This document shows, piece by piece, positions 1,619 through 1,709 of a DNA stretch of 64,000 bases. Under the pieces are notes generated by a model. The model searched no databases and was not told the origin of the DNA. It saw only the letters and a program-made list of their open reading frames with translations. Position numbers and translations under genes: made by a program. Within the stretch, counting starts at the first letter, position 1; every line of letters starts with the position of its first letter. This stretch comes from a virus (lineage: Duplodnaviria > Heunggongvirae > Uroviricota > Caudoviricetes): positions 1 to 64,000 of IMG/VR virus record IMGVR_UViG_3300032245_001763; one strand, written 5' to 3'.

Positions 1619-1709
1619 TCAAGAGTAGCATACGTTGGTTAAATGCAAACGACTGTTAATCGTTCGTAAGTATGAAAACTTACCGTAGGTTCGATTCCTA
1701 CCTCTTGAG
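1619..1709 (+). tRNA. Atypical 91-nt tRNA with anticodon GTT (Asn) and a class-II-like 20-nt variable-arm hairpin
   Basis: Perfect acceptor TCAAGAG/CTCTTGA, D-stem GCAT/ATGC, anticodon stem AACGA/TCGTT with loop CTGTTAA, variable hairpin GTAAGT-ATGAAA-ACTTAC, T-arm GTAGG-TTCGATT-CCTAC. Confidence 0.6.

Follow-up and report, generated by a model that had tools for sequence, protein, structure and literature searches.

Two conserved families of class-II-shaped tRNAs with asparagine and histidine anticodons in phage-type tRNA arrays

Background

A long variable arm is the textbook characteristic of the leucine, serine and selenocysteine tRNAs and of the bacterial tyrosine tRNAs. Here we describe two tRNA genes in which such an arm is combined with the class I anticodons of asparagine (GUU) and histidine (GUG). 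Both genes are found in a virus of the Caudoviricetes (IMG/VR record IMGVR_UViG_3300032245_001763), of which positions 1 to 64,000 were analysed; this stretch of 64,000 nucleotides is referred to as the window. Full-text literature searches, with subscription journals outside their coverage, yielded no report of long-armed Asn or His tRNAs in phages, and we know of no reported role of the variable arm in tRNA-based counter-defence.

The class II shape and class I anticodons (Gly, Ile) are found together in the nev-tRNAs, which are restricted to nematodes, have the body of a tRNA-Leu and are charged with leucine in vitro (PMC3333845). Among the irregular tRNAs of bacteria and phages described by Mukai et al., which also include an (8/4) tRNA-Ser, the allo-tRNAs have a long variable arm and non-Ser anticodons and are thought to be serine acceptors, and the phage (8/4) tRNA-His lacks G-1 and carries A73 or U73 (PMC5389517). 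Phage tRNAs are also known to act in counter-defence: the Lys, Thr and Asn tRNAs of phage T5 act against PARIS, and its tRNA-Tyr acts against retron Eco7 (PMC12409363, PMC11555353, PMC10264068). The AriB nuclease of PARIS targets Lys(UUU), Thr(UGU) and Asn(GUU) tRNAs, cutting between positions 40 and 41 and contacting positions 16-17 of the D-loop (PMC12409363).

Results

Two tRNA genes with a fifth arm

An earlier note, made from the letters of the window alone, had proposed two tRNA genes with an extra paired variable arm, and ARAGORN, direct reading and RNAfold agree on both (coordinates in Table 2). The anticodon loops given in that note, CTGTTAA around GTT and CTGTGAA around GTG, were likewise recovered by reading the sequence and by ARAGORN. 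The perfect stems that it ascribed to both genes are indeed present in the Asn gene, where every stem pair is Watson-Crick, but the description is slightly overstated for the His gene, since G.U pairs occur in its acceptor and T stem. A fold that would place a Leu, Ser or Tyr anticodon in the loop was offered neither by ARAGORN nor by the minimum free energy (MFE) structure.

The tRNA-Asn gene was called by ARAGORN as tRNA-Asn(gtt) over 1619-1710 (92 nt). It has an acceptor stem of 7 bp (TCAAGAG/CTCTTGA) that starts with U at position 1 (T1619 pairs with A1708), a D stem GCAT/ATGC, an anticodon stem AACGA/TCGTT and a T stem GTAGG/CCTAC with the loop TTCGATT. The discriminator is G73 at 1709; CCA is not encoded, the next bases being CTT. 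The variable region counts 20 nt, as against 4-5 nt in class I, and forms a stem of 6 bp with a single unpaired C on either side (1665 and 1684; C-GTAAGT-ATGAAA-ACTTAC-C). The gene scores above the gathering threshold of 29 bits with the Rfam tRNA model (RF00005), and its RNAfold MFE structure retains the acceptor, variable-arm and T hairpins (z = -3.1). The elements of a bacterial tRNA-Asn, the GUU anticodon and G73, are both present, together with the GatCAB determinant U1:A72.

The tRNA-His(GUG)-type gene is the sole His tRNA among the 31 tRNA genes of the window. Its acceptor stem TTGTGCG/CGTACAA has 7 bp, one of them a G.U pair, and starts with U1:A72; the D stem is ACAG/CTGT with a loop of 11 nt, the anticodon stem CTTGA/TCAAG, and the T stem GCGGA/TCCGT contains a G.U first pair (G49.U65) and A53:U61. 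Position 8 is A, not U. Of the His identity elements the gene has GUG and C73 (at 5639) and lacks an encoded G-1:C73 pair, position -1 (5553) being T and not G. The variable region measures 14 nt with a stem of 4 bp. The MFE structure is the exact five-arm cloverleaf (z = -1.9). The Rfam tRNA model did not report the gene even at E<=10, and at the gathering score it recovered none of seven relatives from the same family.

A tRNA-like minihelix was observed 2 nt upstream of the His-type gene, at 5509-5551. It consists of an acceptor-like stem of 8 bp (CAAACAGG/CTGTTTG region) around a T-arm-like hairpin (AATAAG-TTCGATT-CTTATT), with a short connector containing TTGG and with the D and anticodon arms absent, and may represent either a tRNA that has degenerated or an element for processing. 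For a small open reading frame (ORF) adjoining the His gene, a homologue search returned only the ORF itself.

Homologous families and covariation

Each of the two genes is a member of its own conserved family of tRNAs with a class II shape, and both families are found in tRNA arrays of the phage type. A loose Asn pattern (CTGTTAA followed, 21-31 nt on, by GGTTCGATTCC) retrieved 111 stretches from IMG/VR, 77 of which are tRNA-Asn(gtt) of 81-92 nt according to ARAGORN, with 61 distinct sequences. The variable regions of these long-armed tRNAs span 13-21 nt and mostly form a stem of 3-4 bp with a four-base loop. Their best-stem length of 3.53 exceeds that of 200 shuffles, for which the mean is 2.99 and the maximum 3.32. 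A family-specific pattern, whose fixed parts are TA and the D and anticodon loops alone and in which the variable region may have any length, identified nine stretches (seven distinct) in metagenomes. All nine are tRNA-Asn genes of 88-92 nt within tRNA clusters, and in all nine a variable stem of 5-6 bp is flanked by one unpaired base on each side. The D loop of these homologues is fixed by the search pattern itself; the D stem GCAT/ATGC is kept in six of the seven distinct sequences, and one has a single change. The 19-nt D arm of the window gene occurs exactly in one IMG/VR contig (L176), and an exact 51-mer of the gene found no match in IMG/VR. A search with the 17-nt anticodon arm returned 120 loci with ordinary tRNA-Asn only, which served as the background set.

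In the alignment of nine Asn sequences 99.6% of the cells pair, both sides have changed at 21 of the 27 pairs, a level that 500 shuffles or slid structures never approached. The variable helix contributes four compensatory pairs, with 97.6% of its cells pairing and with pairs 49:64, 50:63 and 51:62 changed on both sides in 4-5 of the nine sequences, and all five pairs of the anticodon stem show compensatory changes. The family clearly has the 7/5 fold: the 12 acceptor and T pairs are formed in every member, and 11 of them change on both sides. U1:A72 is present in eight of the nine members, and relatives score much like the window gene with the Rfam tRNA model (L176, 48.5 bits; L385, 50.6 bits).

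A pattern made from the His D loop and anticodon loop gave nine stretches in IMG/VR, all of them tRNA-His genes of 87-90 nt with a variable stem; a looser scan and the flanks of the Asn-scan loci supplied additional members. In the resulting 10 distinct sequences all four pairs of the variable stem are compensatory, compensatory changes are found in four helices, the CTGTGAA loop is invariant and C73 is present throughout. The arm of L397 (GGTC-ATTGC-GACC) is nearly identical to that of the window. Position -1 is G in seven of the 10 members and U in the window copy, L269 and L155. A8 is invariant, and A8:U65 and G49.U65 are each possible in nine of the 10; since neither pair varies, covariation cannot choose between a 7/5 and an 8/4 fold in this family.

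Because compensatory changes keep the stems in homologues on other contigs, the pairing of the variable arms is more than a matter of chance, and the architecture that the earlier note had found unusual is real. Covariance models that were built without the window sequences recover both window genes (R2 and R1 in Table 2; E around 1e-23), and all other tRNAs of the window score at most 49 bits with these models. The suggestion of an inserted element is correct if it means a structural module that was added, but not if it means an intron or a mobile insert, because only the pairing of the arm is conserved and not its sequence.

The D loops are longer in the long-armed than in the short-armed tRNAs (9.2 versus 7.9 nt for Asn, 10.2 versus 8.3 nt for His), and those of the long-armed class I isotypes approach the values of Leu, Ser and Tyr tRNAs. 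The pattern suggests a class II core whose parts have adapted to each other, and not simply an inserted arm. Nearest neighbours, determined on the whole body or on D arm plus T arm, are mixed and reveal no clear Tyr, Ser or Asn ancestry.

Restriction to viruses

The five-armed Asn and His tRNAs are a recurrent type and not a peculiarity of this genome, and the long-armed families are restricted to viruses. In 185,579 GTDB genomes the loose Asn pattern matched 115 stretches, only 14 of which are long-armed tRNA-Asn genes; the loci of eight among these 14 hold 12-40 tRNAs per 8 kb and are arrays of the mobile-element or phage kind. The family-specific Asn pattern had no match in the same genomes. 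Long-armed genes are present in cultured phages, where they were annotated without comment: a tRNA-Asn in Aeromonas phage Aeh1 (AY266303.2, 111227-111311), another in Erwinia phage Hena1 (MN732867.1, 56718-56803) and a tRNA-Lys(CUU) of 87 nt in Caulobacter phage CcrBL9. Against the GenBank phages, a megablast search with positions 1-12000 of the window gave no match, and a blastn search with both window tRNAs and their GC-richer relatives gave none but one weak match to a tRNA-Tyr. By the latter result, the two specific families are without a cultured representative among the GenBank phages.

Amino acid identity

Acceptor pairs 1 to 3 and the discriminator position were compared over about 1,800 distinct phage tRNAs (Table 1). 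The acceptor ends of the long-armed Asn and His tRNAs resemble those of their short-armed counterparts and not those of the Ser, Tyr and Leu tRNAs.

Table 1. Acceptor ends of long-armed and short-armed phage tRNAs
tRNA	1:72	2:71	3:70	Discriminator
Long-armed Asn (n=75)	U:A 73%	C:G 57%	mixed	G 95%
Short-armed Asn	U:A 63%	C:G 50%	mixed	G 87%
Long-armed His (n=19)	G:C	U:A	G:C	C, 18/19
Short-armed His	G:C	U:A	G:C	C
Ser	G:C 87%	G:C 87%	A:U 71%	G 79%
Tyr (65 sampled)	G:C 82%	G:C 66%	G:C 58%	A 100%
Leu (76 sampled)	G.U 43%, G:C 42%	C:G 62%	C:G 55%	A 100%

In bacteria, Asn identity is determined by the anticodon and G73, with U1:A72 as the determinant for GatCAB, and C2:G71 and G73 have been reported as antideterminants for seryl-tRNA synthetase (SerRS) and for the leucyl- and tyrosyl-tRNA synthetases (LeuRS, TyrRS), respectively (PMC9976931). 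The Asn gene of the window has U1:A72, C2:G71 and G73 and has neither the acceptor signature nor an anticodon of a tRNA-Ser; instead of the A73 of Tyr and Leu tRNAs, the two window genes carry G73 and C73. The misassigned Leu or Ser identity that the earlier note had considered is thus contradicted by acceptor ends and discriminators of the Asn and His type. In line with an Asn identity, the homologue residues aligned with AAY codons of the SPFH protein encoded in the window are Asn in 69% of cases and Ser in none (nine positions only). Asn and Lys account for 8.8% and 9.6% of the window codons, with which the presence of four Asn and three Lys tRNA genes fits. The array stretch that was fetched contains no Asn tRNA besides the long-armed one in 69 of 87 loci.

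Taken together, the comparison of sequences makes it likely that both genes specify real phage-encoded elongator tRNAs of conserved families, with an identity that follows the anticodon: Asn and, less securely, His. The His gene is probably cognate, the efficiency of its charging being uncertain in a window copy that lacks G-1. In bacteria G-1 is the main determinant for histidyl-tRNA synthetase (HisRS). Several observations weigh against this interpretation. The window His copy may be poorly charged, since it lacks G-1 and has U1:A72, whereas seven of the 10 relatives have G-1:C73. Its fold may deviate from the standard, possibly towards 8/4, because of A8 and the weak 49:65 pair, and the Rfam tRNA model misses the whole His family. 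The arm of the Asn family is shaped like that of a tRNA-Ser (5-6 bp between single unpaired bases) and is combined with G73, and some serylation of these tRNAs may occur.

Alternative explanations

The Ser-like geometry leads to an alternative in which a synthetase that does not read the anticodon, SerRS above all, or else LeuRS or TyrRS, charges the tRNAs by way of the long arm. At AAY and CAY codons, Ser, Leu or Tyr would then be incorporated in part, by which phage genes could be recoded or host translation poisoned. SerRS reads an extended variable arm as well as G73 and ignores the anticodon (PMC7609411; PMC5389517), the window Asn gene offers precisely such an arm (1 nt / 6 bp / 1 nt) with G73, the Leu-charged nev-tRNAs (PMC3333845) and the allo-tRNAs (PMC5389517) provide precedents, and the window cluster lacks Leu, Ser and Tyr tRNAs. 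Nevertheless we consider this explanation very improbable, and the recoding tRNAs of the earlier note found no support. The acceptor ends are those of Asn and His tRNAs instead of the G1:C72, G2:C71, A3:U70 of tRNA-Ser, all sampled Leu and Tyr tRNAs have A73, and the published antideterminants C2:G71 and G73 are in place (PMC9976931). The AAY codons align with Asn and not with Ser at the nine positions compared, and 8.8% of all codons would be mistranslated by a gene that is usually the sole Asn tRNA of its array; in the window cluster it is accompanied by three ordinary tRNA-Asn genes. For the His-type gene, and possibly its whole family, a decaying copy or a tRNA-like RNA (a nuclease decoy, or a processing or regulatory element) has to be weighed as well. 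The absent G-1 and U1:A72 of the window copy, A8 in place of the near-universal U8, the A53:U61 and G49.U65 pairs of the T stem, the failure of the Rfam tRNA model on the window copy and on 7/7 relatives tested, and the minihelix just upstream would all suit such an RNA, as would the several "tRNA-like stable RNAs" annotated in the tRNA region of T5. We nonetheless regard it as improbable, given 10 distinct sequences conserved with compensatory changes in four helices and with the CTGTGAA loop and C73, the standard His identity G-1:C73 in seven of the 10, and the fact that the gene is the only His tRNA among 31. Moreover, L269 and L155 lack G-1 too, yet their stems are perfect or near-perfect.

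A further explanation concerns the arm itself, which might be a functionless expansion of the only site that tolerates insertions, in phage tRNAs that drift under relaxed constraint. Enlarged and unpaired variable regions are indeed found in other tRNAs of the window (Trp, 11 nt; Pro, 8 nt; Ala, 7 nt), the 62 long-armed Asn genes are diverse in arm length, loop and geometry, and the nearest-neighbour analysis suggests several independent origins. Such drift does not agree well with the compensatory substitutions that maintain the stems in both families, with a best-stem length above that of all 200 shuffles, with D loops that have lengthened as in true class II tRNAs, or with the strongly non-random distribution over isotypes described below; a neutral expansion therefore seems unlikely to us. 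As the covariation shows, the arm is maintained by selection.

Proposed working and role of the arm

If the tRNAs are cognate, the Asn tRNA would be recognised through its GUU anticodon, G73 and U1:A72 by the asparaginyl-tRNA synthetase (AsnRS) of the host, or by a non-discriminating aspartyl-tRNA synthetase together with GatCAB, and the His tRNA by HisRS through GUG and C73. The published antideterminants suggest that G73 or C73 and C2:G71 would keep out LeuRS, TyrRS and SerRS. The extra hairpin is placed in the variable region, the sole site where the ribosome and EF-Tu already tolerate an arm, and would alter the shape of the tRNA but not its meaning.

The arm may present a steric difference from the host tRNAs, by which the phage tRNAs could escape those tRNA-directed nucleases, from host defence or from the phage, that grip the anticodon stem and the D-arm region; this is the explanation of the arm that we prefer, as a guess of low confidence. 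In a broader form, class I tRNAs (Asn, His, Thr-UGU, Lys, Ile, Met, Cys) would have been rebuilt on a class II scaffold, such that the arm either blocks immune nucleases or marks self, a proposal that we put forward tentatively and consider somewhat unlikely. Normal charging and decoding would be kept, and PARIS AriB, PrrC, OLD and colicin-E5-like nucleases would be sterically blocked; in the self-mark alternative a phage-encoded nuclease would destroy the host tRNAs only. A role as steric shield or self mark is plausible, if speculative, in view of the isotypes in which long arms concentrate (below), among them the AriB target Thr(UGU), and since the variable arm projects from the region that AriB cuts and contacts.

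The distribution over isotypes was derived from the by-catch tRNAs of the loci, which is not an unbiased sample because the loci had been chosen for a long-armed Asn or His gene, and this sampling has to be counted against the interpretation. In the by-catch, long arms are present in 18% of the Cys(GCA), 12-14% of the Ile, 10% of the Met and 9-10% of the Lys tRNAs, and hardly any are seen in Val, Phe, Arg, Gly and Ala. They occur in 14 of 93 Thr(UGU) tRNAs (15%) versus none of 31 other Thr tRNAs (p=0.02), and in about 9% of the tRNAs with an anticodon ending in U or A versus 2% of those ending in C or G (p=3e-8). The shield in particular has further points against it: the tRNA-Asn of T5, a phage that escapes PARIS, is of normal length, and the AriB motif U36AAUC is distributed alike in long- and short-armed Asn tRNAs. 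Furthermore, Septu and retron Eco7 target tRNA-Tyr, and Septu cuts within the variable loop of that tRNA.

Genome setting and other observations

The window is part of a metagenome scaffold of 530,789 bp (ENA ERZ28594238 scaffold_3). It has about 25% G+C and mostly small ORFs on the same strand. The SPFH protein has hundreds of phage homologues, with relatives on IMG/VR contigs of 100-300 kb, and no capsid or terminase genes were seen in the window. From its size, gene content and SPFH relatives we infer a huge phage. An origin from a eukaryotic giant virus was rejected in view of U1:A72 in the tRNA-Asn, C73 in the tRNA-His, the phage homologues of the SPFH protein and a transfer-messenger RNA (tmRNA) next to a related array.

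The 31 tRNA genes found by ARAGORN, whose calls cover the window, are all on the + strand between 1181 and 22509, and no tRNA genes were found in the 6.5 kb upstream of the window. They serve 16 amino acids, without a Leu, Ser, Tyr or Phe tRNA. The isotypes that normally have a long arm are thus all absent from the cluster; Tyr makes up 6.1% of the ORF codons. No synthetases or tRNA enzymes were detected in Pfam scans of 30 window ORFs. Enlarged, essentially unpaired variable regions were observed in the Trp (1181-1260, 80 nt), Pro(AGG) (21049-21125) and Ala (22247-22325) tRNAs, all three of which score below the Rfam gathering score. The genes at 3012-3085 and 7534-7604 have anticodon loops of six bases (ATATTG and TTATGG) and were reported by ARAGORN as "tRNA-???" with a two-base anticodon; the latter scores 51.4 bits with Rfam. 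Since both loops contain TAT, these may be odd-loop Ile-type tRNAs that read AUA, or tRNAs with a 4 bp stem and an 8-nt loop. A "tRNA-Pyl(cta)" with a 611-nt intron at 51500-52200, called when introns were allowed in ARAGORN, is most likely a false positive, as it overlaps a glycosyltransferase ORF on the other strand.

A mirror case was seen in other phage-type arrays, where tRNA-Leu genes (CAA, GAG) are only 75 nt long and have a variable loop of 5 nt (Table 2; numbers with L denote loci outside the window). At 4344-4425 of L388 lies a tRNA of 82 nt with A73 and a tRNA-Leu body that is near-identical to the neighbouring Leu(CAG) and Leu(UAG) tRNAs. Its anticodon loop reads CCATGAA, for which ARAGORN reports His(ATG); possible readings are a missense tRNA that is charged with Leu and a paralogue in decay. 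Long-armed His and Asn tRNAs also occur on related viral contigs whose tRNA arrays have a tmRNA (113 bits) and a group I intron (57.9 bits) next to them.

Besides the tRNAs, the window encodes at least nine paralogous proteins of about 200-280 amino acids with an N-terminal DUF7666 domain, four of them in tandem. A block of sugar- and sulfate-modifying genes, unusual content for a phage, extends over 51726-61967 (minus strand) and also occurs at 40228-42578. Its members include a group-1 glycosyltransferase, a polysaccharide pyruvyl transferase, a sulfotransferase, methyltransferases and a concanavalin-like protein, and a DUF1501 protein (291 bits) is encoded nearby.

Table 2. Positions of the five-armed tRNA genes, their parts and other features
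Feature	Sequence	Position	Strand	Basis or detail
Five-armed tRNA-Asn(GUU)	window	1619..1709	+	ARAGORN; Rfam tRNA 50.2 bits; family model R2 95.8 bits, E 7e-24
Asn D arm	window	1628..1646	+	GCAT-ACGTTGGTTAA-ATGC, 4 bp stem, 11-nt loop; sequence
Asn anticodon GTT	window	1655..1657	+	loop CTGTTAA (1653-1659); stem 1648-1652 / 1660-1664; sequence, ARAGORN
Asn variable-arm hairpin	window	1666..1683	+	GTAAGT (1666-1671) / ACTTAC (1678-1683), loop ATGAAA; sequence, also in MFE
Five-armed tRNA-His(GUG)-type gene	window	5554..5639	+	ARAGORN tRNA-His(gtg), 86 nt; MFE; family model R1 91.1 bits, E 2.5e-23
His anticodon GTG	window	5590..5592	+	loop CTGTGAA (5588-5594); stem 5583-5587 / 5595-5599; sequence, ARAGORN
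His variable-arm hairpin	window	5601..5612	+	GGTC (5601-5604)-ATTT-GACC (5609-5612), then unpaired GT; sequence
DUF7666 paralogues	window	16308-19053, 29305-29910, 33516-34881, 48901-49605		
Short-armed tRNA-Leu	L001	3636-3710		
Short-armed tRNA-Leu	L388	3660-3734		
Short-armed tRNA-Leu	L390	1893-1967		
tmRNA beside array	L155	145-490		
Group I intron beside array	L397	6781-6970		

Discussion

The long-armed Asn and His tRNAs represent a recurrent, virus-restricted and selectively maintained exception, in which a long arm is joined to the acceptor-end identity marks of Asn and His. Cognate charging, if it occurs, would mean that a large arm is tolerated by AsnRS and HisRS, with implications for the reading of tRNA shape by synthetases, EF-Tu and modification enzymes and for the engineering of orthogonal tRNAs. 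If the arm protects against defence nucleases, it would constitute a new structural mode of phage counter-defence, and if the scaffold or shield proposal is true, the number of arms would be a trait of an arms race and not a fixed attribute of an amino acid class. The question is directly testable, since the cultured phages Aeh1, Hena1 and CcrBL9 carry such genes. For annotation, it matters that general tRNA models miss the entire His family.

Comparison with known systems

With the ordinary class I Asn and His tRNAs the two genes share the anticodon, G73 or C73, the T loop TTCGATT and G18G19. U1:A72 and C2:G71 are common to the ordinary tRNA-Asn, and U2:A71 and G3:C70 to the ordinary tRNA-His. 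They differ from these tRNAs in a paired variable region of 20 nt (Asn) or 14 nt (His) instead of 4-5 nt and in D loops of 11 nt, and the window His gene differs from ordinary tRNA-His also in A8 and the absence of G-1. The five-arm shape and the long D loop are those of the bacterial class II tRNAs (Ser, Leu, Tyr). The Asn arm of the window is built like that of tRNA-Ser; in many other long-armed phage tRNA-Asn the geometry is that of tRNA-Tyr (0-1 nt / 3-4 bp / 3 nt), and both GUU and GUG are a single base away from the Tyr anticodon GUA. The anticodons, on the other hand, are those of class I, and neither the discriminator nor acceptor pairs 1 to 3 are those of Ser, Leu or Tyr.

The class II shape with a class I anticodon is a feature in common with the nev-tRNAs and the noncanonical V-arm tRNAs of eukaryotes. 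Unlike the nev-tRNAs, the phage tRNAs have the acceptor signature of the amino acid of their anticodon, do not have A73 and occur in a phage and prokaryote context. Like the irregular tRNAs of Mukai et al., they are located in phage tRNA clusters, and the window His copy is likewise without G-1. The Asn family, however, is plainly 7/5, and both families have a D stem of 4 bp with an 11-nt loop in place of the Sec-like long stem and tetraloop of the allo-tRNAs. The His family could pair A8:U65 as in the (8/4) tRNA-His, from which, as described, it is set apart by C73 throughout and by G-1 in seven of 10 members. Finally, the long-armed tRNAs resemble the known counter-defence tRNAs in being phage copies of isotypes that are attacked by nucleases (Asn GUU, Thr UGU, Lys UUU), but the known escape consists of point changes in the anticodon stem-loop or the D loop, in the case of T5 within a tRNA-Asn of normal length.

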